A stretch of DNA of 63,993 nucleotides, counting the filler. It is 8 parts of 8 records of this genome, joined end to end, with 100 filler letters (N's around TTAATTAATTAA, not from the genome) between each part and the next. Parts side by side here need not be neighbours in the genome. Positions count along the whole stretch, not along the records: positions 58,903 to 63,993 come from SRR31147125_55181; 7 more parts are not named here. The stretch is one strand, 5' to 3'. The position numbers and the translations under genes are program-made. Below the pieces are notes generated by a model. The model saw nothing but the letters and a program-made list of their open reading frames with translations. It did not search any database and had not been told where the DNA came from. Of this stretch, positions 3,499 to 63,993 are shown in pieces; position 1 is the first letter of the stretch; each line of letters begins with the position of its first letter.

Positions 3499-3671
3499 TA
3501 TAATATTTTAGCTCTCACTATATTCAAATTCACCATGAAAAAAATATTGCACGTTTCGGGAAAACACTGCAGGAACTTGTTATTTCACAGTTTACATAAT
3601 CGTTTCAAACTAATTATTGAGTATCTTTCGTGGAAAGAAATAATCAACTCCTTACCATGGGTAATCTTCAT

Positions 3672-6600
3672 ATGAACAATGATATTATTGAAGCATTAAA
3701 ACATTTAAAAGAGCAAATTGATAATGGGAAAGTTTCAGTTCTCATTGGTTCAGGATTTAGTAAAAATGTTAGTAATATTTTCCCAAACTGGACGGAATTA
3801 TTGGAAGATATGGCATTTGAATTGTACGAAGAGGAAATTAATCTCAAAATTACAAAGCCTGAAAAAGAAATAAATTCTGACCAAGAATCCGAGAAACAAA
3901 AAACGGAGCATATTGGAGCTATAATAACTAAGATTGGTTACTTAGAGCTTATGGCTGAATACAGGAATAGAAAGGGCTTTAGGGAATCTATTGATGCTTA
4001 TATCGAAGAACATATTCCAATAATTGAAAAGCAATCAGATTCCTATAGATTAAAATATATATATAAGAACTCAGAGCAGAGTACCCAATTATTACCACCG
4101 AATTGTATAGACCTTCATAAGAAGCTCTTAACTCTTAATTGGAATAATATTTTTACAACCAATTATGACAATTGTATTGAATGCGCTTATATTGATAAAC
4201 AGGACGAGCTTCGGGATTCGAAGAAACGTGTTAAGGATTTAGAGACTAGAATTCAAAAGAATAACGAAAAAATTGAGAATGAAAACAGATTGATTGATGA
4301 AAAAAAGGTAGCTTATATTCAAAAGGATGAAGATGAGAACTCTTATTTGAGTATTGATGGCGATTCATATAATCCTCACTATGATGAAATTGAGAAGTTA
4401 GAAATTGAAAATGATAAATTCGATTTTGAACTAAAGCAAATAAGAAGAAAAATTGAAACAGAAAATATTAATGTCGTTAAACATTCGTCTGACCTTCAAA
4501 TTCAAAAGAACAGAAACATAATTAAGCTGCATGGTTCTATTCCTAAGAACAATAGTGAAAATTTTGAATTTGATGGTGATATTCATAAAAGATATGTGAT
4601 TTCTAAGCAGGACTATAGTGATTACCCTCAAAAGCATGAAGCATTTACACAGTTAATGAGGATTAGTTTACTTCAAGATGCATTCTGTTTAATTGGGTTT
4701 TCCGGTGTTGATCCAAATTTTATTGCCTGGATATCATGGGTTCGGGATATTATTGAACGAAAATCAAATGGTTCTCAACCACATGATTATAAAATTTACC
4801 TTATTGATGTTGATGCTGAGAAGGTAACTCCTGAGAAAGAACTTTTTTATAGAAATCATAGAATTGTTCAGATTCCTATATGTTCTGAAGAAATCATTAA
4901 ATTTTTTGATCAAAATTCAAAAGAAAGTATTGATAAAAAGAATAGAAGGCAGGTACTTGAATTCTTTTTCAATTTCTTGTCTTCAGACATCAATAAAGAC
5001 TATATCAAAAATAAAGAGGCTGAGTATAAGGTATTATATGAATTATTAAGTAAAGGCACTTTTGATGAGAAATATGATTTAGGAAAATTGACTGAATCGA
5101 TAAATAGTTTATGGAGACTTAACAATATCGCTCAGGTGGGTAGTAAAGATGATATGATTGACAGAACGATGCTAACGTTTCTTCAAAACTTTGACAAACT
5201 TTTTAATAAGTTCGATTTGTCAAATCAGATAGAGAGTTTTTATCAACTAACATTAATAATTTTAGGAGACTCCAATATTCCTTTTTCTAAAGAACTCCTG
5301 AATGATAATACATATAATGAAATAATTAAGAAGACTCAGACCGGAAGCTTTTCAAAAAGATTTAATATTCTAAAGTTGCACGAAAATGTCTTGTTAAATA
5401 ACAAAGAGGAATTTGATATACAAATTGAGCAACTTGAACTAAATATCGTAGATGATGAAGTAATATATGAAAAGGCGTTAGTGCTGCTATTTAATTTGAG
5501 ATTTACAGAATTATTGAAGCATTTAGGAGCATGGAGTCCAAAATCATATTTTATTGTTTTGAAAGCTAATCTTTTAGCATATCATGATATAAATGAAGCA
5601 TTTGAGTACTTGAAAAATTTTATTTATAAATCAACAGAATTTTCACTTTTATCACCGCAAGAAAAGCTATATGCACATCAGTTCTTACATTTTTTGAGTT
5701 TTTCGATTCAATTTAAAACTGATAAAAAAATATGGAATTCCATTGAGTTAATTAAAAAGCAAGGTTGTAAAGACTTGATTGAAACGGTAAAGAGCTTTAG
5801 AAATAGTATAACTAGAAAGATTAGTCGTATTGAACCTTGTAATACCGGTGGTTTTGAAAATGCTATAGATAAAAGTATCCCGAATCAGTCTGTCTATGGA
5901 ATCCAATTCTTGCAGTATTTAATAAAGTCAGGGTTATCTGTTGAATCCATGATGTTTAAGCTAATTGAGTATGATGATTGGTATGAATTCTTCAAAATTG
6001 TCTATGAAAAATTCCCAATCCCTTCGTTATACTATTCTTTGCAATATCAAAGTTCTGGTTTTACCAAAAGAGTTGGTCAAGACTATGTAAACTCAGATAT
6101 ATTGCATTCAGAACTAAATGAGATTTTTATCAACTTAAGTATTGCATGGGAATGTAAGGACACGCCGAACAAAATCAGAAATAATATTCTATATTTTATA
6201 ACGGAACTCCTAGTTGCGTTGGAACCAAAGGTTTGGGAACCCTTTTTTATGCGAGTTTGGAAGAAACTTTTACAAGATGGGCAACTGTTCGAAGATTCCA
6301 TGTTTCATGTACACGATTTTGTTAAAAGAGGATTAAAATTTCTGGAAAAGGATAATAATATTGAGTTTATAATTACCTCTCTAATCGAGAACTTGCATGA
6401 GGGGCGCTATGTGATAAATTATCTTTATTCTTTATCCACCAGTAAAACGATTATTCGTAACAAAGAATATTTATTAAATTCAAATGTTGTAGTTAAGATT
6501 GATGAAACTATTGAGAACTTAGGACATAATCTCATGTACAGCATTTATACTCTGGGAAATCTTGAAAAAATCATTACCACTTCCCAGATGAAAAGTATTC

Positions 6601-7505
6601 AAAATAAATTTAAAGAAGTTTGTTTCAGCCAACTAAATAGCGCGAATATTTGGCATGTTATTTTATACCTCTCACAAGGTGACAAGGAAATCAACTTGAA
6701 AATAAAGAAAGCAGTAATAAAGAATAAATATTTATTTGATTCGGGCATAACCATAAATAAAAATGGTCGAGCGTCTATTTCTCCTAATGAATTTATAGAG
6801 TTGCATCGGCTAAGAAAAAGTGTTTCTAAACCTTATGGACTGGAATGGACAAAGAAAGAATCAGAGCTTATATTTAAGAAAATATGTGATGAGTTGGATA
6901 GGATTGATAGTCTAACAAAACAAGGTAAAGCTTTCTGGGGGTATAAAGACATTATCGAGGAAATGAAAGTTTTTCTTATGGATGAAAAAGCAACCTTGAA
7001 AAATCAGCCCGATTATAGTCACTGCTTGGAACGCGCCCAAAATAATCTAAACCTTGAAATTGGTACTGGTAGTATCGAAAGACGAATTATGTCGGAGAAC
7101 CAAAAAGAATACTTCCATGCAATGGAAGAGATAACCAGACATTTGTTCGAAACGGAATCAATAGGACAATATTTTGGGAGTATAGATTATGTTTTATCTA
7201 AACTATTAGTTGGATTTGACCCAAATTTGCTGTTCACGTTAAGAAAGGTTTCAATATGGGTCAAAGAAATGAAAGACGATAACAGTATGAACCAATTTAG
7301 TGACAAACTATGTCGAATTTTAGATAAATACCAAACCAATTATAAGATAGAAGGATACAAGCCATCATTCCATTTATTTCTGGTGACAATTGCTGAGGTG
7401 TTAAATTATTGGAACATTAAGGATGATGCAGTCAGTTATTGGTTAGAGTTTAAGCAAAATTCTGTTTACAATAATGTTAAACAGTTTGAATTAGATATAA
7501 AATAG
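3672..7505 (+). CDS. Large SIR2-domain (Dsr1-like) NADase anti-phage protein
   Basis: Motifs LIGSGFS, FTTNYD, IIKLHGS and FCLIGFSGVDPNF..W..WVRD, followed by a long helical C-terminus. The ORF is open from 3630; ATG 3672 is the likely start. Confidence 0.85.
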   Translation: MNNDIIEALKHLKEQIDNGKVSVLIGSGFSKNVSNIFPNWTELLEDMAFELYEEEINLKITKPEKEINSDQESEKQKTEHIGAIITKIGYLELMAEYRNRKGFRESIDAYIEEHIPIIEKQSDSYRLKYIYKNSEQSTQLLPPNCIDLHKKLLTLNWNNIFTTNYDNCIECAYIDKQDELRDSKKRVKDLETRIQKNNEKIENENRLIDEKKVAYIQKDEDENSYLSIDGDSYNPHYDEIEKLEIENDKFDFELKQIRRKIETENINVVKHSSDLQIQKNRNIIKLHGSIPKNNSENFEFDGDIHKRYVISKQDYSDYPQKHEAFTQLMRISLLQDAFCLIGFSGVDPNFIAWISWVRDIIERKSNGSQPHDYKIYLIDVDAEKVTPEKELFYRNHRIVQIPICSEEIIKFFDQNSKESIDKKNRRQVLEFFFNFLSSDINKDYIKNKEAEYKVLYELLSKGTFDEKYDLGKLTESINSLWRLNNIAQVGSKDDMIDRTMLTFLQNFDKLFNKFDLSNQIESFYQLTLIILGDSNIPFSKELLNDNTYNEIIKKTQTGSFSKRFNILKLHENVLLNNKEEFDIQIEQLELNIVDDEVIYEKALVLLFNLRFTELLKHLGAWSPKSYFIVLKANLLAYHDINEAFEYLKNFIYKSTEFSLLSPQEKLYAHQFLHFLSFSIQFKTDKKIWNSIELIKKQGCKDLIETVKSFRNSITRKISRIEPCNTGGFENAIDKSIPNQSVYGIQFLQYLIKSGLSVESMMFKLIEYDDWYEFFKIVYEKFPIPSLYYSLQYQSSGFTKRVGQDYVNSDILHSELNEIFINLSIAWECKDTPNKIRNNILYFITELLVALEPKVWEPFFMRVWKKLLQDGQLFEDSMFHVHDFVKRGLKFLEKDNNIEFIITSLIENLHEGRYVINYLYSLSTSKTIIRNKEYLLNSNVVVKIDETIENLGHNLMYSIYTLGNLEKIITTSQMKSIQNKFKEVCFSQLNSANIWHVILYLSQGDKEINLKIKKAVIKNKYLFDSGITINKNGRASISPNEFIELHRLRKSVSKPYGLEWTKKESELIFKKICDELDRIDSLTKQGKAFWGYKDIIEEMKVFLMDEKATLKNQPDYSHCLERAQNNLNLEIGTGSIERRIMSENQKEYFHAMEEITRHLFETESIGQYFGSIDYVLSKLLVGFDPNLLFTLRKVSIWVKEMKDDNSMNQFSDKLCRILDKYQTNYKIEGYKPSFHLFLVTIAEVLNYWNIKDDAVSYWLEFKQNSVYNNVKQFELDIK

Positions 7506-7538
7506 GGCTTGTGAGGAAGAAGCTGTTGGTCAGTACAA

Positions 7539-7565
7539 TAACTTTGATGTATTTAGATAAGTTTG
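7539..7565 (+). promoter_or_regulatory. Possible Bacteroidota-type -7 promoter elements (TAnnTTTG, twice)
   Basis: TAACTTTG at 7539-7546 and TAAGTTTG at 7558-7565, upstream of the AbiV-like gene, with an A-rich leader lacking a Shine-Dalgarno site. Confidence 0.3.
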
Positions 7566-7599
7566 AGGAAATCAGAAGCACTGAATAATATAAAAAGAG

Positions 7600-8256
7600 A
7601 TGAAAGGATTTCTTAATCTATCAAATGACGAATGTCTTGAAGTTTACCCTACATTATTTGTTAATGCAAATACCCTTATCTCAACAGCAGAAGATGCTTC
7701 TTTGAAGGAAAATTACGGAGTTGCTTGTTCATTAATGATACTGGGAACAGAAGAATTGGTGAAGGCGTTGATTATTCTTCTTAAAGGATATGGTGTTAAG
7801 GTGTTTAAAATTAAAGAATTTAGAGAGGTTTTTCATAAACACAAAACTAAACATGAAACCGCATTGCTAATAAAAGCAATGACTACATTAATTCAAATTA
7901 TAGATGTTTTTGAAGCTAAAAAGATACCTCAAAAGAAATCTCAGAAACACTGGATGAATAAGGTTATATCAGGTTTGCAAAAAGGCTTTAAGGTAGTAAC
8001 TTTCATGGTTGAATTTGGTTACGATGTTTTATGGTGGGAAAAAGCTAATGATTTAAAAAACAACGGTTTTTACGTTGGATATCGCGATGCTTTATTGTTA
8101 CCACAAAATATTACAAAAGAAGCTTATCAAGAAGTTAAGATAAAGTCAGAAAAAGTAAAAACCCAAATAAGGGTATTTGAACTACTTCTAAAAAGAGAAA
8201 AAAATCCAAGAGAAATAGTTAAAATGTTGAACGAAGGAATTGAGTTGTCATCATGA
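7600..8256 (+). CDS. AbiV-family abortive infection protein (HEPN-like)
   Basis: Pattern NA..LI..AE...YG.A.SL.ILG.EEL.K, F..H..K and KN.GFYV. Confidence 0.75.
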   Translation: MKGFLNLSNDECLEVYPTLFVNANTLISTAEDASLKENYGVACSLMILGTEELVKALIILLKGYGVKVFKIKEFREVFHKHKTKHETALLIKAMTTLIQIIDVFEAKKIPQKKSQKHWMNKVISGLQKGFKVVTFMVEFGYDVLWWEKANDLKNNGFYVGYRDALLLPQNITKEAYQEVKIKSEKVKTQIRVFELLLKREKNPREIVKMLNEGIELSS

Positions 8257-8604
8257 AACTTTCGTTTCAAATATCTTTCTGTCATTTTGTGACTTCGCAA
8301 TAATTCAACTTTATTAACTAAATTCTTTCTGGAAAAATGATTTCAGAAAGGAGTCTATTTTATATGTACGTCTGTTGTGTCTACCCTTAAATCCTGTCAA
8401 AGTTATTAATAGCCAGCTGGAAAAGTCAAGGGCGTACCGATGAAGAAATCGGCACGTCCTTCGGATTTGTTCAGTTTTTTGCCACCCAATTTCCTGCCCA
8501 TAAAAAACAGACATAACCCCTTGACAAGAATCCATCCGGCTCGATGGCATACGCCAAAATTTAATGGCGTGCCAGAAGCCGATATAAATCTGCAGGGCAG
8601 CAGT

Positions 8605-8704
8605 NNNNNNNNNNNNNNNNNNNNNNNNNNNNNNNNNNNNNNNNNNNNTTAATTAATTAANNNNNNNNNNNNNNNNNNNNNNNNNNNNNNNNNNNNNNNN
8701 NNNN
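8605..8704. other. Artificial contig spacer
   Basis: N run with central TTAATTAATTAA (stops in all six frames). Confidence 0.98.
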
Positions 8705-9676
8705 TTTTTTTCCACAATCATGGTGTGTTTAGGTGCTCATTTTAGTGCGGTATGGATCGTTGTCGCAAATTCATGGCAACAAACACCTGCAGGACATCAT
8801 ATTGTTCAAACAGAAACCGGTTTTAGGGCAGAAATTGTAGATTTTTGGCAAATGGTCTTTAATCCGTCTTCAATGGACCGCTTAAGCCACGTTTATATGG
8901 GAGCCTGGCAGGCAGGAGCTTTTTTTGTACTCAGTGTAAGTGCTTATTATCTATTAAAGAAAAAACACATTGAATTTTCGAAAACATCCTTTAAAATTGC
9001 ACTCGTACTTGCGGCTACTGCTTCCACGTTACAACTGGTGACTGGACACTCGAGTGCTATTGGCGTCAGTGAACATCAACCGGCGAAACTGGCTGCCATG
9101 GAAGCTCATTATCCAGAAAATGAGCCAGCGCCACTTTACTTATTTGGCTGGGTAAATGAAAAGGAAGAAAAAGTACAATTTGGCATAAAAATACCCGGAT
9201 TTTTAAGCTATCTTTTATACCAGGATTCAGATAAACCTGTCAAAGGGCTCAGGGCCTTTGCCGAAGATGAAAGGCCTCCTGTAAATATTGTCTTTCAAAG
9301 TTATCATTTAATGGTAGCAATTGGGATGGGACTCATTCTTATCTCCTGGATTGGGCTTGTTCTATGGTGGCGGGGCAACTTGTTTAATAATAAATGGATA
9401 CTCGGTATTTTCGTATTTTCAGTATTGGGTCCACAAATTGGCAATCAGCTTGGTTGGATGACTGCTGAGGTAGGCAGACAGCCATACATTGTATACAATC
9501 TGCTTAAAACAGCAGATGCATACTCTCCAATAGTCAGTGCCAGTCAGGTACTGACCTCACTTGTTTTGTTTGGTTTAATATATCTGCTTCTGGGTGTTCT
9601 TTTTATATATTTATTAAATGAAAAAATAACAAATGGACCGGAAGTTGAATTTGATACGGAAGGGAAAAAGGCATGA
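8705..9676 (+). CDS. cydA: Cytochrome bd ubiquinol oxidase subunit I (5' truncated)
   Basis: ANSWQQTP, QPAKLAAME and GWMTAEVGRQP motifs. Confidence 0.95.
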   Translation, partial: FFSTIMVCLGAHFSAVWIVVANSWQQTPAGHHIVQTETGFRAEIVDFWQMVFNPSSMDRLSHVYMGAWQAGAFFVLSVSAYYLLKKKHIEFSKTSFKIALVLAATASTLQLVTGHSSAIGVSEHQPAKLAAMEAHYPENEPAPLYLFGWVNEKEEKVQFGIKIPGFLSYLLYQDSDKPVKGLRAFAEDERPPVNIVFQSYHLMVAIGMGLILISWIGLVLWWRGNLFNNKWILGIFVFSVLGPQIGNQLGWMTAEVGRQPYIVYNLLKTADAYSPIVSASQVLTSLVLFGLIYLLLGVLFIYLLNEKITNGPEVEFDTEGKKA

Positions 9677-10701
9677 ATCTGTCATTTGATTTAAATTCAA
9701 TTTGGTTTTTTCTTGTCGGGATCTTGTTTGCCGGTTATGCTGTCCTGGATGGTTTTGATCTTGGCATTGGAGCATTACATTTATTGACAAAAACAGATAC
9801 TGAAAGACGTATAATGCTAAACTCAATTGGCCCGATTTGGGATGGCAATGAAGTTTGGCTTGTGACCGGAGGCGGGGCTTTATTTGCTGCCTTTCCCGAA
9901 GTATATGCTACTGCCTTTTCCGGATTTTACATGGCGTTCATGTTGCTCTTATTCGGGCTCATATTCAGGGCTGTGGCTATTGATTTCAGAAGTAAACAAC
10001 CAATGAAATGGTGGAGACAATTATGGGATGTCAGTTTTAGTGTCAGCAGTATCTTGTCCGCTTTTTTAATTGGGGTGGCACTGGGAAATATTGCCTGGGG
10101 CATTCCTTTAGATAAGAACCATGAATTTACCGGCACATTTTGGAGTTTGTTGCACCCTTATGCAATACTCGTGGGTATAACAACTGTCGCATTATTCATG
10201 ATGCATGGTGCCATATATGGAGTATTAAAAACCGAAGGGGAGCTACAAGACCGAATACGCAGCTGGATCAGAAATACCATGATTTTCTTTATCATTAGCT
10301 ATGTAACAGTTACCATGGCTACCCTTTTATACGTTCCCAACATGACGAATCACCTCAAACAAAGTCCACTTCTTTTTGTTATACCTTTGTTGAATATGCT
10401 GGCAATAGCCAATTTACCGCGCGAGATTTATCGCGGAAAAAATTTCAATGCATTTCTTTCATCCTGTTTCACAGTCACAAGTTTATTGGCTTTGTTTGGA
10501 ATAGGAATGTATCCGGACATGATTTTTTCGAATCCCGATTCTGCAAATAGTCTTAACATTTACAACGCTGCCTCTTCAGCAAAAACGCTGCAAATCATGT
10601 TGACCATTGCCATTTTGGGAATTCCCATCGTGCTGGCATACACAACAAGTATTTACTGGATTTTTAGAGGAAAAGTGAAACTCGATTCTACAAGTTATTA
10701 A
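9673..10701 (+). CDS. cydB: Cytochrome bd oxidase subunit II
   Basis: LDGFDLG and GPIWDGNEVW motifs; overlaps the cydA stop. Confidence 0.96.
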   Translation: MNLSFDLNSIWFFLVGILFAGYAVLDGFDLGIGALHLLTKTDTERRIMLNSIGPIWDGNEVWLVTGGGALFAAFPEVYATAFSGFYMAFMLLLFGLIFRAVAIDFRSKQPMKWWRQLWDVSFSVSSILSAFLIGVALGNIAWGIPLDKNHEFTGTFWSLLHPYAILVGITTVALFMMHGAIYGVLKTEGELQDRIRSWIRNTMIFFIISYVTVTMATLLYVPNMTNHLKQSPLLFVIPLLNMLAIANLPREIYRGKNFNAFLSSCFTVTSLLALFGIGMYPDMIFSNPDSANSLNIYNAASSAKTLQIMLTIAILGIPIVLAYTTSIYWIFRGKVKLDSTSY

Positions 10702-11006
10702 CCGACCAATTTTATCGGTCCTTTAAATCGCCATGTTTATTTTATGGCAGTTATTAGACGATTCAAGGTCAAAAATCAGTTCTTTTTTAAAAAAACTGGA
10801 ATTATTAGTAGCAAAACTTTATTAAATATAATAGTTAAGCACTCATAAATATTAAAAAAATTCATACAGGCATTATATACAAAACAAGTCTGGAATTTTT
10901 GATTCCAATTTTGAGTGCAATGTTCACTTTCTTTCGTTATTGTTTCATAGAAAAAGATTTTTTAACTCATAGCGGTTATTGCAAAAGCTATACAAAAGGA
11001 GCAAGT

Positions 11007-31944: not shown

Positions 31945-33151
31945 GTGGCTCTCTATGAATACAACGCATATGATCAGCAGGGGAAAAAACAGCGAGGTGT
32001 TGTTGAGGCCCTGAGCCAGAAGGCGGCCAGTCGAAAGCTGAGAGGTCAGGGACTTTTCCCGACGCGGCTGGCGACCACACGAACCGCCCTGGGACCAGCG
32101 CAGCGGACCTTTTCCGCCGGGTCAGTGCCATCCAGATGGCTGTCGTGACGCGTCAGCTGGCGACGATCCTTGCCGCCGGGATGCCGCTTGATGAGGCCCT
32201 GGCAACGGTTGCGGATCAACTTGGTGGGGCGGAGCTGGGATCTGTTCTGACGCGGGTGCGTGACGATGTCCTGCAGGGGAGCTCTCTTCACGGTGCCTTA
32301 GGTGTTCACAGCCGTATCTTCCCGGCGCTGTACACCAACATGGTTCAGGTTGGAGAGGCGAGCGGCACGTTGGATAAGGTTCTGCTGCAGTTGGCAGACT
32401 ACATGGATGAACAGGCCCGCTTTTCAGCGCAGATGAAGACGGCATTGACCTATCCTCTGCTGATGTTTCTGGTCGGTAGCGGGGTGCTGGTTTTTCTGAT
32501 GAGTTTTGTCGTTCCGAAGGTTACGCGGATGCTTGAAGATCTGGACCAGGCCCTGCCTCTTCCGACTCTTCTGCTGATGGGGACAAGTGACTTTCTGGCG
32601 CGCTATTGGTGGTTGTTGCTGCTGCTCGGCCTGTTTTTGTTCTGGGCGTTCCGACGCTATGTCGCGACAGCAAAAGGGCGGCACTGGTTTGATCAGAAGA
32701 AGTACCGCCTCCCTCTGTTCGGCTCTCTGGCGCTGAGCAATGCGACGGCCGCTTCGCGCGGACAACGGCCACTCTGCTGCATAGCGGAGTGCCGCTATTG
32801 ACAGCACTGGAGATCGTCCAGAACCTACTGGGGAACAACTATCTTCAGCGCGCTCTGGAAACGGTCCGGGAGAGGGTCACGGAAGGGGCGGGTCTGTCTG
32901 AGCCGCTCTACGACGTCGCTGTTTTTCCATCGATGTTGGCACAGATGGCTGCGGTCGGGGAAAAGAGTGGTGAACTGGAGGGGATGTTGTTCAAGGTCGC
33001 GGAGATTTATGAGCATCAGGTGCAATCGCGCCTGAACAGCCTCATGGCTCTGATCGAGCCTTTGATGATTCTGGTGATGGGGGCGGCGGTCGGTTTTATT
33101 GTTCTGGCCGTGTTGTTGCCGATCTTTCAGGCCAGCCAGGGAATGGGGTAA
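31945..33151 (+). CDS. gspF: Type II secretion inner-membrane protein F (two frameshifts)
   Basis: Pieces 31945-32148, 32136-32801 and 32789-33151 carry TRQLATIL.AG, GEASG.L and GEKSGEL..EP motifs. Confidence 0.88.
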
Positions 33152-39833: not shown

Positions 39834-40637
39834 GAACAGGTGGGGCTCGGCTCCTCCTCCTCTCTGACCCTGGCGGTGGTCACCGCCCTCAAGCAGCTTT
39901 ACGAATTTGATATTTCCGATATTCAGCTGGTCGAATCCGCCCGCCTGGCGGAGATGAAGTTCATGAAAAAGGATCCCGGCCTGACAGCCTGCACCATTTC
40001 CTACTATTCCAGAGAGGGACAGGCTCTTCTTATCGATACCAGAACCATGGACATGAGCTATATCGATATGGATTTTTCTCCCATTGAACTTCTTGTCACC
40101 GATTCCCATGTGCCCAACGGGAACGGATACGGAGAGACCGATGAGCTCAGAAAGGACTACGAAGTCTGTCAGACCATACTGAATCAGCAGAAAAAAAGCA
40201 TGTCCCTGCGGGATCTGACGGCCGCCGACCTCCGGTCCGGTCTCGGCGGACTTCCCGAAGGCGTCAGACGGCGCTGTCTGCATATTGTGGAAGAGAACCA
40301 GCGGGTCAGGGAGATGAGTACCGCCCTGGAGATCCGGGATCTGACGACCGTGGGGAAACTGATGAACCGGTCTCATGAAAGCCTGAGGGATCTTCTCGAA
40401 ATATCCTGTCCCGAACTGGACTGGCTGGTCAAGCGTGCCAATGAAACCAGCGGTGTTCTGGGGGCCAGAATGGTGGGGAACGGATTCGGCGGGTGTACAA
40501 TCAACCTGATAAATGCTAATAATATTCCATTATACGACGAGCACCTGGAAGAGTATGACCGGATTTTCGGCTTCAAGGCCGATCACTTTATCTGCACTCC
40601 CGCGGCAGGTGTCAAATATCTGAAAAACAGCAGGTAA
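39834..40637 (+). CDS. galK: Galactokinase-like GHMP kinase (5' truncated)
   Basis: GLGSSS, H...EN.RV, SH.SLRD..E.S.PELD and GARM.G.GFGGC motifs; the GxMDQ motif is degenerate. Confidence 0.75.
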   Translation, partial: EQVGLGSSSSLTLAVVTALKQLYEFDISDIQLVESARLAEMKFMKKDPGLTACTISYYSREGQALLIDTRTMDMSYIDMDFSPIELLVTDSHVPNGNGYGETDELRKDYEVCQTILNQQKKSMSLRDLTAADLRSGLGGLPEGVRRRCLHIVEENQRVREMSTALEIRDLTTVGKLMNRSHESLRDLLEISCPELDWLVKRANETSGVLGARMVGNGFGGCTINLINANNIPLYDEHLEEYDRIFGFKADHFICTPAAGVKYLKNSR

Positions 40638-40644
40638 CAATACA

Positions 40645-41391
40645 ATGAAAATACTGATAACCAACGATGACGGGATTCAGAGTCCCGGTCTGCAGATCCT
40701 GAAGGACGTTCTGTCCTCACGCCATGAAGTCTGGGTTATGGCTCCCGACGGAGACCAGGGCGGCTACTCCCAATCCATCACCCTGCGGGATCCCGTAAAG
40801 ATCACATGCGTCGATTCCCGTTCCTATGCCTGCAGCGGTACGCCTGTCGACTGTGTTGTCTACGGTCTGGGCGGATTTCTGGATGTGGAATTCGACTTGG
40901 TTCTGTCGGGAATCAATCTCGGTCCGAATCTGGGAACCGATCTCCTCTACTCGGGTACGGCCGCCGCAGCCCGGCAGGGCGCTCTGAAAAAGGTCCCCTC
41001 CCTGGCGCTCTCTCTGGACCGGTTTCTGCCCCTTACGATTTCACCGTCATTTCCGAGTACCTCCTGGAGAATCTGGAGGAGCTGGTCTCTCACTGGGAGG
41101 ACAGCTGCTTTCTGAATATGAACTTCCCCGGGGAGATGAATGAGGATTCCTGTCTGGAGTGGACCAGGCCGGCGGTACGAAACTATCAGGACGAAATCGT
41201 TCAGTTTCAGCCCCCGGGACAGCGGAACCTACTGCTTCCTGAAAGGCAGCCTGATTACCTCGGAAGAGGAGGAAGGCACCGATGCCCTGGCTGTTAAACG
41301 GGGCAATATCGCCATTTCCGCCGTCCGACTGTCTCCCGCCATTGTTCCCCATATCGGCCGGGTGCCCGACAGTGCGGGGGTCTGCAGCTGA
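40645..41391 (+). CDS. surE: 5'/3'-nucleotidase SurE (frameshifted)
   Basis: ILITNDDG, GTPVDC and SGINLGPNLG...YSGT motifs; C-terminus split over other frames. Confidence 0.88.
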
Positions 41392-45177: not shown

Positions 45178-45811
45178 CCCCGCCTACACCGAGTACCTGG
45201 ACCGCATTCGCAAGCGTGTGAACGCCGGCCCGGCGCCCAGGAAGGACTATACCCGTTTCGGCCCGACGATAACCGAGCTTAACCACGCCATCGTCGATGA
45301 GAAAAAGATACACCTGACCTACTTTACCATGGGGCGACAAAAAGAAAGCCGACGCACGGTGCATCCCTACCAGTTTCGCCATGTGGAAGACACCCTCTAT
45401 TTGATCGGCTATTGCGCCCTGCGCAAAGGGGTGCGGACATTTGCCGTGGACCGCATCAAATCGGTGACCCTGACCGATGAAACCTTTCAGGTACCTGAGG
45501 GCTTTGATATGCAAGGGTTTCTGCAAGACAGTTTCGGGATTTACCAAGGGCCGCCGGTAAAAGTGAAAATCCGTTTTTTGGACTCGGTGGCCGGCTATGT
45601 TCGCGAACGGATCTGGCACCCCAGTCAGCAATTATCGTATCAGGAGGACGGCTCCGTCATTTTCACCGCGACGGTTGCCGGTATAGAAGAGATCAGCCAC
45701 TGGGTGCTGCGCTGGGGGGCCGGTGCCCAGGTGCTGGCGCCGGATGATCTGCGCCAAACGGTCAGCCGGCATGCGTCAGCGATGGCGGCCTTCTATCAAC
45801 AAGACCCGTAA
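45178..45811 (+). CDS. WYL/WCX domain transcriptional regulator (5' truncated)
   Basis: R.VHPY, LYLIGYC..R..RTF.VDRI, WHPSQ and WVL.WG...V..P..LR motifs. Confidence 0.92.
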
Positions 45812-45840
45812 TTCGATGCACCGGCAGAGTGGAGAAAACC

Positions 45841-46632
45841 ATGCAGGACCTAAACGTCGCCCTGATTCAAGCAAGGCAGGTGTGGGAGGACACGGAGGCC
45901 AATTTAAATCGTTTCCAGCGAAAAATCGATCAGATAGAAGCCGGTACGCATCTGATCGTCCTGCCCGAGATGTTCACCACTGGATTCACCATGCATCCCC
46001 GGCATCTGGCCCAATCCATGGACGGTCCCGTTATTGCGTGGATGAGGGCGCGGTCCCGAGAAACGCGCTCAGATATCACAGGCAGCTTAATCATCGAGGA
46101 AAAAGGTTGCTATTACAATCGTCTGGTCTGGGTTAAGCCAGATGGCAGGTTGCACTGGTATGACAAGCGCCACTTGTTCCGCCATGCCGGCGAGCAGAAG
46201 GTGTATTCCCCCGGTCGGCAGCACCTGCTGGTGGAGTGCCACGGCTGGCAAATCCGCCCGTTCATCTGCTATGATTTACGGTTTCCCATATGGATCCGCA
46301 ACCTCGACCTTATTTATGACGCCGCCCTTTTTGTGGCCAACTGGCCGCAGCGTCGCGCACCGCACTGGAAGGCCCTTTTAACGGCCAGGGCCATCGAAAA
46401 TCAATGCTATGTGGCCGGCGTCAACCGTGTGGGTGTTGACGGCAATGGGTATCGCCATAGCGGCGACAGTCGTATCATCGACCCGCAGGGGCGAGTGGTT
46501 GCCGGGGAGAGCGATGTGGAAGGAATCATTACCGGTATTTTCTCAGCAGACGTGCTTCAAGCGTATCGCAAACAATTTCCAGCCTGGATGGATGCCGACA
46601 AGGCGTTGATCACGAAACAACAGCGGCTATAA
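45841..46632 (+). CDS. Nitrilase-family omega-amidase (YafV-like)
   Basis: LPEMFTTGF, YDKRHLF, ICYDLRFP and ARAIENQ motifs. Confidence 0.92.
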   Translation: MQDLNVALIQARQVWEDTEANLNRFQRKIDQIEAGTHLIVLPEMFTTGFTMHPRHLAQSMDGPVIAWMRARSRETRSDITGSLIIEEKGCYYNRLVWVKPDGRLHWYDKRHLFRHAGEQKVYSPGRQHLLVECHGWQIRPFICYDLRFPIWIRNLDLIYDAALFVANWPQRRAPHWKALLTARAIENQCYVAGVNRVGVDGNGYRHSGDSRIIDPQGRVVAGESDVEGIITGIFSADVLQAYRKQFPAWMDADKALITKQQRL

Positions 46633-58903: not shown

Positions 58904-59122
58904 GGCAAGTTATTAAAAACCGATTCCTTAGTAATATTTGCACCCATCTTCTTTTTCATTCCGTTATCCGCCATCGGGGATGAAAAGAAGATGACCATTG
59001 ACTATCCTGAATTCTATCCTTTTTTTGCCCAAACTGAAAATAGGGAGATTGAAGGGTTCTTCTACGACATCATAATGCAAAATGAGGGCATCCTGGAAAA
59101 AATTATCTCAAAATATCATTAA
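58904..59122 (+). pseudogene. Internally deleted family-3 solute-binding protein remnant
   Basis: Signal-like stretch plus YPEFYPF....EIEGFFYDII fused directly to C-terminal-type M..EG.LEKIISKY. Confidence 0.5.
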
Positions 59123-59198
59123 CTCATCTTTTTTCATGACGCTATCTACAATTATGAGATAAGCTGAAAAAAGAACGTTGTTTTTAGGACCCAAAGCA

Positions 59199-61330
59199 AT
59201 GGAAAAAAAGTACCAACACATCTTCATCACCGTTCTGTTTATCTCGATTATCCTGTTTTATCTTTTTATATCGGTTTACCAGACAAAGAGCCTTGAACAA
59301 GCCAATATGACCCTTGAAAGGCACGCATCCATCGTTGCCGACGCCCTTTGGAGGTTTGAACAAGATACTCAGGTGACCTATTTGAAACTGGCCGCGGAAT
59401 CCGACAACTACACCAATTTGATTGTTTGCGATAGCGCCGACAACGTCTTCGTCTCGCTCACCGAGCAACGCCCTCGATCACAATTCGATACATTTTTGTC
59501 CAAAGTAAACCTTTTGTCGGTCCACCCATTGGAAAAACCGATATCATTCAAAAAAAGCAAATCGGCACAATCAAAGTGAATTGGGAAAACAGAGCCATTT
59601 TTCTGTACTGTTATCTTTTCATTTGCCTGATGTTGACGTTATTCGCACTTTGGCTCTTGTTAAATCTGATCATTGCAAAACGCACATTGGAAGAGAAAGT
59701 GCTTGAACGAACCGCGGATTTGAATGAAAGCAAGCAACGCCTGAAAAAAAGTGAAGAGCGGCTCGAGCTTGCCCTGGCCGGAGCCAATGACGGCATTTGG
59801 GATTGGAATTTAAAGGATAATATCGTTCATTATGATCCTCGGTTTTATACCATGATCGGGTACGCGCCCTATGAATTTGAGTGTACATTTTCAGAATGGG
59901 AAAAACGGGTCCATGTGGATGACATCGAAAAAGCAAAAAGAGCAATTGAAAAATACATTTCCGGAGAAGTGGAGACCTACAATCAAATTTTTCGATTACT
60001 CAATAAAAAAGGAGAATATCAATGGATCCAATCCAGAGGTAAAATTGTCAAGAGAGATGAAAATAACCAACCGATTCGGTTTATCGGAACCCATGCGGAC
60101 ATCACCGACTCAAAACAACTTGAAAAAGCTCGGGATGACGCCCATGAAGAGATCCGCAGTCTGAGAAATTACCTGTCCAACATCATCGACTCCATGCCTT
60201 CCGTGCTGATCGGCGTCGATAAAGAGGGGCGCGTGACCCAATGGAATCATAAAGCCGAGTCTTTGACAGGCGTGCCGTCTAAATCCGCCGTCGGTGTCCC
60301 CTTTGACAAAATATTTCCCACTCTTTCAAATCAATTGGAACGGGTGAATCAAGCCATTACAATGAGGCAAATTTGCCAAGATTCCCGCCTGGAAAGAAAA
60401 GTGGGCAGCCAAACCATATACGAAAGCATCACGATATACCCTTTAACTTCCAATGGGGTTGAAGGGGCTGTCATTCGGATCGATGACGTCACCGAACAGA
60501 TCCGGCTTGAGGAGATGATGATTCAATCGGAAAAGATGTTGTCCGTTGGCGGTCTTGCTGCAGGGATGGCCCATGAGATCAATAACCCACTGGCCACCAT
60601 GATCCAGACAGCCAATGTGATGAAATTACGTCTTCAAAAACTCGACATGCCGGCAAATATTCGCGCCGCAGAAGCGCTGGGGCTCACCTTGGATGATATC
60701 AAAGCATATATGAAAAACAGAGGCATTTTTCGTATGGCGGACGCCATCACCGAATCTGGTCGCCGAGTCGCTGAAATTGTAGACAATATGCTCAGTTTTG
60801 CAAGAAAGAACGATACTATCGTATCCACACACGATCCTGCTCAACTGATCGATCAGATCCTTGAACTTGCCGCTACAGATTACAATCTGAAAAAGCATTA
60901 CGATTTCAAGGCCATCTCCATCGTCAAGGAGTATCAGGATCAACTCCCCATGATCCCGTGTGAGGGCGGTAAAATACAACAAGTGATTTTGAATATCCTA
61001 CGCAACGGCGCCCATGCCATGCAAAAAGAGAACGACGCCGACGCGAAAACACCATGCTTTACCATTCGACTGTCAGTGGAAGAGGTGCATCAAATGCTGA
61101 GAATCGAAATTGCAGACAATGGACCCGGCATGGACAAAGTCACCCAGACCCGAATTTTCGAACCCTTTTTTACAACAAAACCGGTGGATGTGGGCACCGG
61201 GTTGGGGTTATCGGTGTCATATTTCATTATTACACAAAATCACGGGGGAACCATGGACGTCGTCTCCGAAAAAGGCCAAGGGGCGACATTCATCATTCGT
61301 CTCCCATTGAATCACACTGAAAATAAATAG
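59199..61330 (+). CDS. Membrane PAS-PAS sensor histidine kinase (frameshift near 59555)
   Basis: Two TM helices, GANDGIWDW PAS, AHEINNPL, NGAHA, DNGPG and FFTTK...GTGLGL motifs. Confidence 0.9.
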
Positions 61331-61348
61331 GTCTCCCACCATTACGAA

Positions 61349-61550
61349 TCATCGAATGTGACCTCTGCTGTTGAGAATCAAACCGGCCAAGCGGTGTCCT
61401 TCTTGCTCCGCCTCAAAATTCTTCACGCCTTTGAAAATATTGTTGGCCGCGTAGAGAGACATGAATTCCTCCGTATCCGGTATGGAGTACATCATCCAGC
61501 CGATGAAGTGCCGCCGGGGTGTTTTTCATGTAATCCAGGGCCGTGACCAT
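61349..61550 (-). pseudogene. Remnant of a nitrogenase iron-protein-like (NifH/CfbC family) gene
   Basis: Frame A reads TALDYMKNTP...RLDDVLHTGYGGI; frame B reads EFMSLYAANNIFKGVKNF...RLAGLILNSR. No P-loop and no cluster Cys residues. Confidence 0.75.
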
Positions 61551-61560
61551 GGCGATTGGC

Positions 61561-63246
61561 TCAGACAAAGAGCCTTTCAAAATCGACATTATCCTGAAAT
61601 CGTTTACTGCGGGTCCGACGGGTATCCAGCGTATGCCAACAGATCGCCCCGGATTCACGATTGGGATCCCCTTCCGGTTCAACCAATATTTCCTTCCACC
61701 GGGCATGACCTTCCGGCGTCTCCCAGAACCCCGCCCGATTGACGGCGCAGATGCCCACGGCAATATTTTCGATGGATCTGGCTCCGGCCAACAACGCGTC
61801 ACCATCCGTGAGGCTCATCTCAAAGCAGAGAATCAGATCACACCCCTGCTTTGCCGCAGCCACGGCGGTTTCCGGATGGTCCAGTTCCGACATTGCAGAA
61901 ATCTGAACACGTGCCGGTCCGATATCCAGAAACGATACATCAGCGCCGTCGTTCGTCACCCATCGTCCCGATTCCGGGATGAACCGAAAATGAAAATGGG
62001 AAGCCATGCCCTCTTTGGGGGTGAAAAGATGGAAATCAATGGGAGCGAATGCGGTTGCGTCGTTGAATTCTTTGCCATGGGTCTCTTCGGGAATGCGTGC
62101 CAGCAGCACACTGTTTTCACTCGATCCCAAAAACCGATGGATCCGTTCCATATCATCCACCGAATAAGAAAAGGGAGGTAGTAAAAAGAGAGCGGCCCGC
62201 TTTGACGATCCATCACAGATTTCATCTGTCTTCCCCTTTTCTCCGACGTTGACGTAGGATTCCACCGGCGTTTCAAATAACCGCTCCAGTGGGTTTTCCC
62301 TTTTGGCCGGAACAACGGGCACAAGATCGAGCAGACCCGGCTCCGGAAGCTCCAGAAACGATGTCAGATCCCGGATGGGGCGCAAATTGCGATAGCAGTG
62401 GTGGTATCGCTCCCTGCGACGCCCCGACAATCGCTGACGACGCGGTTCGGAATCGAGATGCCCTTCCGGAGAGAGTGGAATGTCAACATTGACGATTTGG
62501 GAATTCATCACCCGTTGATGGTGTTCAGATTTAACTTTGGTATCGACAATCAAATCCCCTTGGGGATCGCAAACACAGGATGAGGCATCCCGACAATCCA
62601 TGATCCGATCCACACCGGTCCGATTGCAGGCGGCTACGTAAATCCCGTTTTCCAAAGCCCGGGCTTTCCAAAGCTCCCTGGGATCCAACCCGGACGGCGG
62701 CCAATTGGCCGGAACCAAAAGCAAATCCGCTCCCCGAAGTGCGGTGATCCGAGGCATCAGCCCGTAATAGGTGTCCGAACAGATAAGTACCCCCATTCGT
62801 CCCCAAGGGGTCTCAAAGGTGTTGTCCTCATTGGGATTTCCCGGACAGGCCCAGCGGCTCTCTGCGTTAATCTTCCGATACCGACAAATCACCTGCCCCC
62901 TGTCAAGCCCGCCGTCACCCATGTCCGGCCCCAGAACAAAGGCACTGTTGTAGAGCATTCCGGTTCGAGCATCTTTTTCCGCCATTCCGAAACAGCCGTA
63001 AATTCCCAGCTCTCGAAGCAGATGGGAGAACGTACTCAACGTCGGACCGTTCAATGTTTCCGCATAGGGCGCCACATCGGCATGATCCGTAAATGAATAT
63101 CCGGAGATGCTCATCTCCGGTGCAACGACAACCTGCGCCCCTTGACGCGCCGCCTCAACAGTGAGTGTCAACAGCGCCTCCCGGTTCTTTTTCGGTTCTT
63201 TGTAAAGGATATGCTGATGAATCAGTGTCAATCTCAACGATGCCAT
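61561..63246 (-). CDS. Carbon-nitrogen hydrolase with a second degenerate nitrilase domain
   Basis: E-K-C triad (APEM, YRKI, LICSD) in domain 1; domain 2 keeps HPE...A..GCD and ARSIEN but lacks the triad. The ORF is open to 63300. Confidence 0.88.
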   Translation of the reverse strand: MASLRLTLIHQHILYKEPKKNREALLTLTVEAARQGAQVVVAPEMSISGYSFTDHADVAPYAETLNGPTLSTFSHLLRELGIYGCFGMAEKDARTGMLYNSAFVLGPDMGDGGLDRGQVICRYRKINAESRWACPGNPNEDNTFETPWGRMGVLICSDTYYGLMPRITALRGADLLLVPANWPPSGLDPRELWKARALENGIYVAACNRTGVDRIMDCRDASSCVCDPQGDLIVDTKVKSEHHQRVMNSQIVNVDIPLSPEGHLDSEPRRQRLSGRRRERYHHCYRNLRPIRDLTSFLELPEPGLLDLVPVVPAKRENPLERLFETPVESYVNVGEKGKTDEICDGSSKRAALFLLPPFSYSVDDMERIHRFLGSSENSVLLARIPEETHGKEFNDATAFAPIDFHLFTPKEGMASHFHFRFIPESGRWVTNDGADVSFLDIGPARVQISAMSELDHPETAVAAAKQGCDLILCFEMSLTDGDALLAGARSIENIAVGICAVNRAGFWETPEGHARWKEILVEPEGDPNRESGAICWHTLDTRRTRSKRFQDNVDFERLFV

Positions 63247-63278
63247 TTTCCGCTCTCCATCTCCCATCTCTCTCTTTA

Positions 63279-63993
63279 TCAATTTTTTATACTCTCCCAA
63301 ATTCTACGATATACCGTACAGATCAACCGGCTCTCTTCTCGATTATTGTAATGAAGTCTGCCGGGGCACTCCCCCGGGCATCTCTCTTCCAGCGGACAGG
63401 CACTGCACTCCAGGCGCCCATAGTTGTTCAAAAGCGTTGTCTCCCCGCCCAAAATATTCAATTTTTCCGGCTCCGGCTGCCACACTGTTCCAGCCTGGAG
63501 AGAGAGATCCCCCAAGGTCTGACCGCAGGGAAAGAGCCGTCCGTCCGGATGAATCGCCACACTCTCCCCTTTGCAGGCGTGACAAAACGCCTTTCGATTT
63601 CCTCCCCGGTTCATCTGAGCTTTTACCATTTCCAGCTCCCGAAGCTGCAACGGAATCGATCGCCTGCGATTGATCTGTGACAATGCGCTCAGCATGGCAT
63701 CCACCCCCATTCGGAGTTCATCCGGCTCAGCAAATGTCACGGTCTGGATTTCATCGGCTCCCTTAATATCGGTTTCAAGGGTGACTCTGGAAATATCGGC
63801 ATGCGTCATCACTCTTCCTTTATGCACCAGAAGGTCCAGCCCGATCCCCTTTGCCTGTGAGAAACCGGCCAGCATCCACATGAGCTGATCCAACGCGCCG
63901 ACATTGTCCCGGCTCACCACGGTGGTCACGCGAAAGGGAACCCTTTCTTCCTCCAACAGTTGAAGTCCTTTCAATGTGAGGGCAGCCTTCCCC
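63279..63993 (-). CDS. Radical SAM protein with SPASM domain (5' truncated)
   Basis: C-terminal CHAC...I.PDG..FPC...CSAC.....CPGECP SPASM-type pattern. The N-terminal CxxxCxxC lies outside the window. Confidence 0.8.
   Translation of the reverse strand, partial: GKAALTLKGLQLLEEERVPFRVTTVVSRDNVGALDQLMWMLAGFSQAKGIGLDLLVHKGRVMTHADISRVTLETDIKGADEIQTVTFAEPDELRMGVDAMLSALSQINRRRSIPLQLRELEMVKAQMNRGGNRKAFCHACKGESVAIHPDGRLFPCGQTLGDLSLQAGTVWQPEPEKLNILGGETTLLNNYGRLECSACPLEERCPGECPGRLHYNNREESRLICTVYRRIWESIKN

Follow-up and report, generated by a model that had tools for sequence, protein, structure and literature searches.

A NifH-family remnant beside a radical SAM/nitrilase gene pair, and its probable source among the NifH-NifD fusions of cobamide gene clusters

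Introduction

What gene once stood behind a tandem nitrilase whose stop codon is followed, after only 10 nt, by peptides of the NifH family that no single open reading frame (ORF) joins? The question is raised by a 63,993-nt stretch of DNA composed of contigs joined by artificial linkers (hereafter the window), near one end of which lie, on the minus strand, the 3' part of a radical SAM/SPASM gene, a gene for a two-domain CN-hydrolase (the nitrilase) and then a short NifH-like stub at 61361-61550. The original prediction, made from the letters of this DNA, was that an ancestral operon had joined the radical SAM enzyme, the hydrolase and a nitrogenase-like reductase, in a cofactor or metabolite pathway other than N2 fixation. 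We find that the stub is a remnant of the NifH family, and we consider it likely that it is the dead end of a NifH-NifD fusion gene beside a cobamide-salvage pair, in a lineage that has lost the nitrogenase-like part. In itself the stub is an ordinary gene wreck, and its value is as a pointer to a clade of fused nitrogenase-like proteins linked to B12.

Results

A NifH remnant in two reading frames

The stub is 190 nt long and begins 10 nt past the nitrilase stop codon (61561-63), the end of a minus-strand ORF listed as 61561..63300. Translation of frame A from 61550 gives MVTALDYMKNTPAALHRLDDVLHTGYGGI, after which the NifH homology fades; frame B yields TEEFMSLYAANNIFKGVKNFEAEQEGHRLAGLILNSRGHIR and terminates at a stop at 61349, and the homologous parts of the two frames share 11 nt (61464-61474). 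Piece B, the homologous part of frame B, sits within a 48-aa ORF (61349..61495) and its homology stops after NSRG. The two NifH-family peptides expected 10 nt behind the nitrilase stop are thus both present, but in two different frames; approximately 29 and 38 homologous residues survive (67 in all), with stops in both frames and no single ORF of at least about 270 residues.

A search with the Fer4_NifH profile, which had been suggested as a check, gives a significant match: the frame-B ORF aligns to positions 149-184 of the 271 in PF00142 with an E-value of 1.1e-7 and 32.0 bits, the Pfam gathering cut-off being 25 bits. Among NCBIfam models the same ORF ranks nifH at the top (E 3.1e-9, 36.5 bits), with CfbC at 30.3 bits. 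Piece A was placed by tblastn in a database of 11 loci, to which its E-value refers; it is 62% identical over 29 aa to the NifH domain of the fusion proteins of loci L077 and L084 (E 5e-9) and 44-55% identical to four other fusion loci, and its best free-standing NifH-like match is 50% identical with a gap (28 bits). In the converse search, with the intact fusion of locus L009 as query on the entire window, frame B is recovered at E 7e-10 and frame A at E 0.014 (0.003 with the L010 fusion), and the next-best match after these two reaches only E 0.6. The Pfam and NCBIfam profiles and the match to intact fusions agree in assigning the stub to the NifH family, as predicted, and that 61361-61550 is a NifH-family remnant is confirmed.

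A fusion gene as the parent

To judge which type of gene was lost, seven intact fusion loci were compared with four NifH-like genes of those genomes that stand free. Piece B is 59-67.5% identical to all seven fusions and scores 49.7-53.9 bits against them, versus 36-42 bits against the free-standing genes; piece A scores 30-42 bits versus 25-28 bits. For both pieces every one of the seven fusions outscores every one of the four free-standing genes, although this is a ranking of bit scores and not a tree, and CfbC, MarH and group VI are not represented in it by labelled sequences. The best explanation of these similarities is that the lost gene was a NifH-NifD fusion of about 740 aa, which would have combined the reductase and the catalytic subunit of a nitrogenase-like enzyme. 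The original prediction spoke of a nitrogenase-like reductase, and this needs correction: in relatives the partner is a fusion and not a free-standing reductase of the CfbC, NflH or MarH type.

The L009 fusion has 747 residues, with Fer4_NifH (E 1e-93) and Oxidored_nitro (E 7e-69) domains, and is followed by a gene for a 455-residue NifK-like protein; additional fusion genes occur in the genomes from which loci L004 and L006 come. Carriers of the fusion include Desulfosarcina variabilis and Desulforapulum autotrophicum HRM2. The NifH domain of the L009 fusion scores 315.2 bits on the NCBIfam nifH model (cut-off 394.35) and 313.7 bits on CfbC (cut-off 402), and among sequences of solved structures the fusion NifH domain matches nitrogenase Fe proteins at 252 bits and BchL at 166 bits. 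The NifD-like domain finds 9fmg/9d9u (titled 'Nitrogenase', and which we take to be methylthio-alkane reductase) at 73 bits, with NifE next. All of the 120 top database matches to the fusion carry both Pfam domains in about 730-800 residues, and they bear generic names such as 'nitrogenase iron protein' and 'NifH1'. There is also a variant of approximately 1,080-1,100 residues (P0196, P0197, P0209 and similar) with extra NTPase-type Pfam matches, suggesting that it holds another fused domain. Members at 34-42% identity occur in contigs that bear fermentation and gut metagenome labels (L125-L127, L156, L192), and the family therefore extends well beyond sulfate reducers.

Linkage of the fusion with the radical SAM/nitrilase pair

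We queried 75 genomic loci around nitrilase homologues with the remnant pieces. NifH-like genes are present in only three (L009, L010 and L053), and none of the other 72 contains a NifH-like remnant; the notion that the 48-aa ORF is a functional small protein was set aside, as nothing speaks for it and an ORF of this kind is found in no relative. In L009 and L010 the genes are ordered BtuF-like, FecCD, NifH-NifD fusion, NifK-like, radical SAM, nitrilase and CbiK, with the fusion, radical SAM and nitrilase genes in one operon, and in L053 the fusion lies 4 kb from the pair. A second set of 80 metagenome loci, fetched by the NifD-like domain, adds two in which fusion and nitrilase occur together (L144 and L172). 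Nitrilase and radical SAM homologues do therefore co-occur with nitrogenase-like genes, at L009, L010, L053, L144 and L172, as the original prediction implied. Among the 80 loci the NifH part is directly upstream in 76, a NifK-like gene is present in 68 and a radical SAM gene in three.

A statistical association is also seen in a sample of 401 genomes from one phylum, in which the full-length fusion is found in five genomes, the nitrilase family in 17, and both in four. The nitrilase family is thus in 4/5 fusion genomes versus 13/396 others (Fisher p 1e-5; p 2e-4 without the centre genome, G003, and p 4e-3 without G395 as well), although these values overstate independence, because related genomes share genes. 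G395 is seemingly the genome from which locus L010 comes.

In one genome (L085, 5989-7395) the fusion and NifK-like genes stand alone, at a distance from cobamide genes, and have a DDE transposase and genes for type VI secretion as neighbours. The fusion/NifK-like pair may move as a unit.

The cobamide setting

The neighbours of the nitrilase are predominantly genes of cobamide (B12) metabolism. In 12 loci, 103 of the 151 ORFs predicted near the nitrilase were searched with Pfam, which identified the ATP:corrinoid adenosyltransferase CobA, CbiZ, CbiK, CobN and AP_endonuc_2 proteins, BtuF/C/D-like transporters and TonB receptors, as well as methylmalonyl-CoA mutase and genes of the cbi ring pathway. 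In a tblastn survey of the 75 nitrilase loci the most common neighbours are CbiZ (34), a TonB receptor (32) and radical SAM (30), followed by CobN (23), CobA (20), CbiK (15), BtuC-like (14), BtuF-like (12) and CbiR-like (8) proteins, and the fusion (3). CbiR is an enzyme of the AP endonuclease 2 superfamily found in cobamide loci, according to the accessible text of its description (mBio 2020, PMC7733943). A cobamide-type neighbour, by which CbiZ, CobA, CobN, CbiK, CbiR-like and Btu-like genes are meant, or a riboswitch-like match occurs at 63/75 loci, and at 44 of the 48 that are at least 15 kb long. Of 11 nitrilase loci scanned with the Rfam cobalamin riboswitch model (RF00174), 7 have a match, and in L006 the element (8583-8806) lies directly 5' of the radical SAM/nitrilase pair. 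In L009 the CbiK protein (9588-10763) carries about 125 extra residues at its N terminus with an extremely high content of His, Asp and Gly, a composition known from metal-binding tails.

These gene neighbourhoods support the assignment of the radical SAM/nitrilase pair to clusters for the uptake and salvage of cobamides, which frequently lie behind cobalamin riboswitches. In sulfate reducers and green sulfur bacteria, among other organisms, the pair appears to be a core part of the B12 regulon that has as yet no name. The cofactor pathway that had been predicted is thus supported, and narrowed to corrinoids. The view that it is not N2 fixation is likewise borne out, in that the intact relatives fall below the equivalog cut-offs of both nifH and CfbC and have cobamide genes as neighbours.

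The fusion itself is found in similar surroundings. In Desulfosarcina variabilis, where the scan covered 30 of 36 predicted ORFs, the genes run CobN, CobA, CbiR-like, BtuF-like, BtuC-like, fusion and NifK-like, and in L053 a riboswitch lies 5' of TonB, fusion and NifK-like genes. RF00174 is upstream of the fusion and on the same strand in five loci, these being L053 and four of the 17 fusion loci scanned (L126, L137, L144, L172); in L177 it is downstream of the fusion and on the opposite strand. Besides these 17, the fusion loci covered by the riboswitch scans were L009, L010, L053, L084 and L085. At least one cobamide-type neighbour is present in 21 of the 80 metagenome fusion loci.

What the stub has lost, and how

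The pieces of the stub were mapped by alignment onto the seven intact fusion proteins. The first ~52 residues are missing, which in intact fusions carry the P-loop and switch I; so are 68 internal residues (equivalent to 82-149), a stretch that contains switch II and, in all seven aligned fusions, the two Fe-S cysteine motifs. The [4Fe-4S] cluster is held by Cys97 and Cys132, in the numbering used in the available part of Meheust et al. (10.1101/765248). Everything after residue ~185 is also absent, including the whole NifD-like domain, and the gene for the NifK-like partner is gone as well. All seven intact fusions retain these cysteine motifs as well as the P-loop and switch I, and because they are missing from the stub it is taken, on this alignment, to lack any capacity to bind ATP or an Fe-S cluster and to be non-functional. 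A search of the window for remnants of NifD-, NifK-, CbiK-, BtuF- or FecCD-like genes returned only low-complexity noise, with the best NifD-like or NifK-like similarity at chance level (E 0.2-0.6).

Three lesions are evident: loss of the first ~52 codons, which puts the start of the NifH homology within about 10 nt of the nitrilase stop; an internal out-of-frame deletion of 68 residues; and loss of all sequence beyond residue ~185. The 11-nt overlap of the sequences flanking the internal lesion suggests a deletion between short direct repeats. There is also an exact 15-nt direct repeat, with one copy in the first kinase ORF of the same contig (59280-59294) and the other overlapping the nitrilase stop at the 5' edge of the remnant (61562-61576). 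Under a uniform base model about 0.012 repeats of this kind would arise by chance in 5 kb, and the repeat may be a trace of the rearrangement or may be accidental. A repeat search of the stub's contig found short repeats only, and no ends of mobile elements. A scan of 61100-61800 for promoters and terminators gave one promoter-like and two terminator-like sites, where 0.7 and 0.8, respectively, are expected.

The radical SAM fragment and the two-domain nitrilase

The radical SAM gene runs off the end of the window, and the ~140 N-terminal residues with the SAM-cluster motif fall outside it; full-length relatives have the Pfam Radical_SAM domain. The 237-aa fragment has no Pfam match of its own, but its predicted SPASM domain is recognised by TIGR04085 (E 7.4e-8, 32.7 bits, above the cut-off of 27), and it is 36-51% identical to the radical SAM gene adjoining the nitrilase in 30 of the 75 loci.

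The nitrilase ORF as listed has 579 codons, although alignment with 21 homologues places the likely start at Met19 (position 63246). Its N-terminal domain (residues 34-258) matches Pfam CN_hydrolase with an E-value of 1.1e-37, and its modelled fold, the four-layer sandwich of amidases and nitrilases, matches 6ypa_A and 2w1v_B (Z 29.7; rmsd 2.4-2.5 over 253-254 residues). E62, K143 and C174 are invariant in 22/22 sequences, and their spacing, with what is known of the family, makes them the presumed catalytic triad. The C-terminal half has no Pfam match at 1e-4, and alignment of the two halves with hhalign gives a probability of 42% over 21 columns only. When the C-terminal half is modelled alone, however (pLDDT 84.7), all of its 24 top structure matches belong to the CN-hydrolase superfamily (Z 12.0-16.9 over 187-215 residues), the next being at Z 6.1; this supersedes a metallophosphatase-like sandwich to which a search with the whole 579-residue model had pointed (Z 5.5-5.8). 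Both halves thus have the CN-hydrolase fold in structure searches, and the two-domain architecture read from the sequence is upheld. There is no invariant or near-invariant Cys among 25 aligned C-terminal halves. The models are consistent with a catalytic N-terminal domain and a C-terminal domain of the same fold without the conserved cysteine, and the protein may be an intramolecular pseudo-dimer with one active site.

Database matches to the nitrilase are mostly from sulfate reducers, and the closest relative among 5.8 billion proteins is 50% identical. Six insertions of about 7-18 residues within 61561-63246 are shared by none of the 21 homologues, and the majority lie in loops that are modelled with low confidence. 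The nitrilase of the window is apparently a divergent but intact member of its family.

The contig and its other genes

The contig that carries the stub begins at 58904, just after a linker, and the genes to the left of that point (the other 58.8 kb of the window) are not proven neighbours. This stretch is present in one public run (X1), from which a Logan contig of 5,516 nt (depth 103) spans 58904-63993 without a break and extends 1 nt and 424 nt beyond these ends, with no mismatch or joint at the remnant (61349-61563); nothing from run X2, of the same sample, aligned to it. Apparent joints at 60584-61208 are matches to other contigs with shared kinase motifs, and are unrelated to the remnant. 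The features of this region are listed in Table 1.

Table 1. Features at and around the NifH-like stub
Feature	Coordinates	Strand	Basis and remarks
Artificial contig linker	58803..58903		N run, all-frame stop linker ttaattaattaa, N run
Convergent PAS histidine kinase	59178..61330	+	Pfam PAS_3, PAS, HisKA, HATPase_c; two ORFs, 59178..59579 and 59576..61330
NifH-remnant piece B (frame B)	61361..61474	-	Equivalent to residues ~150-185 of intact fusion; Fer4_NifH and nifH profiles
NifH-remnant piece A (frame A)	61464..61550	-	Corresponds to residues 53-81 in the Desulfosarcina variabilis fusion (L084, intact); tblastn
Two-domain CN-hydrolase ('tandem nitrilase')	61561..63246	-	Pfam CN_hydrolase; start inferred from alignment
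Radical SAM/SPASM enzyme, C-terminal 237 aa	63279..63992	-	NCBIfam TIGR04085

The convergent kinase stops 30 nt from the end of the NifH homology and appears as two parts, one a membrane sensor and the other a PAS kinase. The sole difference between the Logan contig and the window is one extra A after 59549, in the A-run at 59545-59551, which would merge the two kinase ORFs, and because of it a homopolymer error of the assembly is the probable cause of the split. The GC content of the kinase region is 40-49%, and that of the nitrilase 52-57%.

Several other observations concern the remainder of the window. Among the 49 of 73 listed ORFs that were scanned, partial Pfam matches (8720-9676, 32136-32801, 39840-40637, 40645-41115) include a cytochrome bd subunit I that begins at profile position 126 and approximately half of a T2SS F protein, together with a GHMP kinase and SurE; these may be further indel errors or real pseudogenes. 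At 3630-8256 a gene for a 1,291-aa SIR2_2-domain protein is followed by one for a HEPN/AbiV protein, and the two look like an anti-phage defence pair. At 45218-46632 a WYL/WCX-domain regulator adjoins a separate single-domain CN_hydrolase (267 aa, E 7e-42) that is unrelated to the tandem enzyme.

Discussion

History of the locus

The history that we favor is that this lineage most likely had a three-part version of the system, with fusion, radical SAM and nitrilase genes, and then lost the nitrogenase-like part, as would have happened in most of its relatives. The ancestral three-part operon of the original prediction survives in part: linkage of the three genes is seen in some relatives, but the gene order of the stub is seen nowhere else, and as an account of the ancestral order it is unproven.

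A number of points weigh against this history and its cobamide setting. The fusion is within 10 kb of the radical SAM/nitrilase pair in only 3/75 nitrilase loci, and because of this we regard it as an optional accessory and not a core member, most relatives being without it; conversely, the nitrilase is present in only 2/80 fusion loci, L144 and L172. A fusion directly downstream of the nitrilase was found in none of the 75 nitrilase loci and none of the 80 fusion loci. Piece A alone has no Pfam match at E<=1. Because the nitrilase has no close relative, the history of the locus cannot be traced stepwise, and since run X1 is possibly the source sample itself, agreement with it tests the assembler and not the biology. 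The stub's 5-kb contig has no other cobamide genes, and RF00174 has no match in the window, which does not include the 5' end of the operon. Riboswitch-like elements were found in 36/75 nitrilase loci with a home-made nhmmer profile and not with Rfam thresholds, and same-strand upstream RF00174 matches were not found in 13 of the 17 fusion loci scanned. Finally, TonB, BtuF-like and FecCD proteins can also carry haem or siderophores.

Accidental proximity is the principal competitor to this history. The NifH-like fragment might never have belonged to the operon, and might have arrived with the kinase segment or by an unrelated rearrangement; the absence of the nitrilase to NifH-like order from both sets of loci would be explained, as would the fall in GC across the kinase region and the rarely expected 15-nt repeat at the 5' edge of the remnant, and the contig is just ~5.5 kb long with assembly breaks on both sides. 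However, the fragment is closest to precisely the clade that is linked, physically and statistically, with this nitrilase family; this would be a notable coincidence for a fusion family present in just five of 401 sampled genomes, and the GC content and strand of the fragment agree with the nitrilase side. We consider accidental proximity quite unlikely. Still less credible is derivation of the stub from a canonical nifH or another reductase (CfbC, MarH, BchL or a group VI type). The surviving residues number only 67, the top NCBIfam model for piece B is nifH with CfbC behind it, and no NifD-like remnant is left as a sign of fusion, but the consistently higher scores of both pieces against the seven fusions than against any of the four free-standing genes compared make such a source very improbable. 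That the remnant is an assembly artefact, from a chimeric join or a collapsed region, might be suspected in a record of linker-joined contigs with at least one homopolymer indel (59549) and several truncated-looking genes elsewhere, but is hardly believable given that a second assembler is identical through the remnant, at depth 103 and with no joint or loose end at 61349-61563, and that a one-base error cannot yield a 68-codon deletion and two truncations.

A possible function of the intact system

We tentatively suggest that the fusion and NifK-like proteins, the radical SAM/SPASM enzyme and the pseudo-dimeric CN-hydrolase could form an undescribed corrinoid-processing module that is induced by B12 scarcity, and that would be the first nitrogenase-like enzyme in B12 metabolism; we would put this at no better than a possibility on the weaker side of even. 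In such a module ATP-driven electrons would reduce or repair the ring of an imported corrinoid, or make Co(I), and the window would show a lineage that only recently lost the reductase part. The fused Fe-protein domain would deliver ATP-driven, low-potential electrons to a NifD/NifK-like scaffold; the scaffold would bind the imported corrinoid, and electron transfer would either yield Co(I) to be adenosylated or bring about reduction of the ring. The hydrolase, meanwhile, would cleave an amide, and the radical SAM enzyme would modify a side chain. These particular chemical steps are offered in a speculative spirit, and we would not be surprised if they proved wrong. The idea that the nitrilase is a cyanide-detoxifying partner of decyanation was set aside as speculation.

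The three enzymes of intact relatives could alternatively build a new Ni or Co tetrapyrrole cofactor from sirohydrochlorin, by a route like that to F430; of the readings considered, this comes nearest to the terms of the original prediction. The fusion NifH domain scores equally on the CfbC and nifH models (314 vs 315 bits), in L009 the nitrilase is followed by a CbiK-type chelatase with the long His-rich extension at its N terminus, and in L049 the nitrilase adjoins cbi ring-synthesis genes; known nitrogenase-like enzymes outside sulfur metabolism also act on tetrapyrroles, according to the accessible portions of two sources (PMC13474568; 10.1101/765248). However, the commonest neighbours in the 75 loci are uptake and remodelling proteins (CbiZ, TonB, CobA and CbiR-like) and ABC importers, not ring-builders, and control is by cobalamin riboswitches, such that we think a biosynthetic route of this kind unlikely and prefer the salvage of imported corrinoids.

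Whichever chemistry applies, a widespread and generically named family of NifH-NifD fusions can now be placed in cobamide clusters and behind cobalamin riboswitches, and its genes are unfit as markers of nitrogen fixation. If the B12 link is true, the family is a candidate for the reduction or reconditioning of scavenged corrinoids by anaerobes, and corrinoids would be a new substrate class for nitrogenase-like enzymes.

Comparison with known systems

The described nitrogenase-like groups perform N2 fixation and chlorophyll, F430, methylthio-alkane and isethionate chemistry, with a tetrapyrrole role proposed for group VI, as set out in the available text of a recent review (Chem Rev 2026, PMC13474568); that text contains neither 'fused' nor 'fusion', and mentions cobalamin only as a sibling pathway. 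The accessible text of the CbiR paper (PMC7733943) has no mention of nitrilase, radical SAM or nitrogenase, and that of PMC10553843 holds nothing bearing on the question. Our search, which had subscription journals and supplements outside its reach, found no published link of nitrogenase-like enzymes or of this nitrilase to cobamides, and one may be in print.

CfbC/CfbD of F430 synthesis is similar to the fusion system in having an ATP-dependent NifH-type reductase and a NifD-like catalytic part that act on a metal tetrapyrrole, in adjoining a chelatase of the CbiX/CbiK class, and in the substantial score of the fusion NifH domain on the CfbC model. It differs in that this score is below the CfbC cut-off, and in that CfbD is homomeric (in the consulted portion of PMC13474568), whereas the fusion system has a reductase fused to the NifD-like part and a second, NifK-like subunit; moreover, the hosts of the fusion are bacteria, its neighbours are B12 salvage genes and its control is by a cobalamin riboswitch. 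BchL/BchNB and chlorophyllide reductase (group V) share the three-part NifH/D/K-like logic applied to a tetrapyrrole ring, and BchB is the best NCBIfam match of the NifK-like partner, although the similarity is very low (53.9 bits, where the equivalog cut-off is 490). The fusion NifH domain is nearer to nitrogenase Fe proteins than to BchL, and there is no photosynthesis context.

The best match of the NifD-like domain among sequences of solved structures (9fmg/9d9u) points toward MarHDK and group IV. Systems of that group are co-localised with sulfur-metabolism genes, in the available text of a recent study (mBio 2026, PMC13753814), whereas the neighbours of the fusion are cobamide genes, with no NifB/MarB-like gene seen in the annotated loci. 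The group VI paralogs of Elusimicrobia also adjoin radical SAM genes, as the fusion can, and are predicted to reduce a tetrapyrrole and not N2; they are described as having nifH, nifD and nifK as separate genes, along with numerous radical SAM genes of which some include B12-binding domains, and the accessible part of their description mentions no fusion, nitrilase or riboswitch link (10.1101/765248).

CbiZ and CbiR share gene clusters with the nitrilase, CbiR being represented there by AP_endonuc_2 proteins, and CbiZ resembles it further in that a CN-hydrolase would, by analogy, be expected to cleave a C-N bond; the folds of both are unrelated to that of the CN-hydrolases. CbiZ occurs together with the nitrilase and does not replace it (L025, L027, L049, L053), and because the two co-occur, the nitrilase probably carries out a different step.

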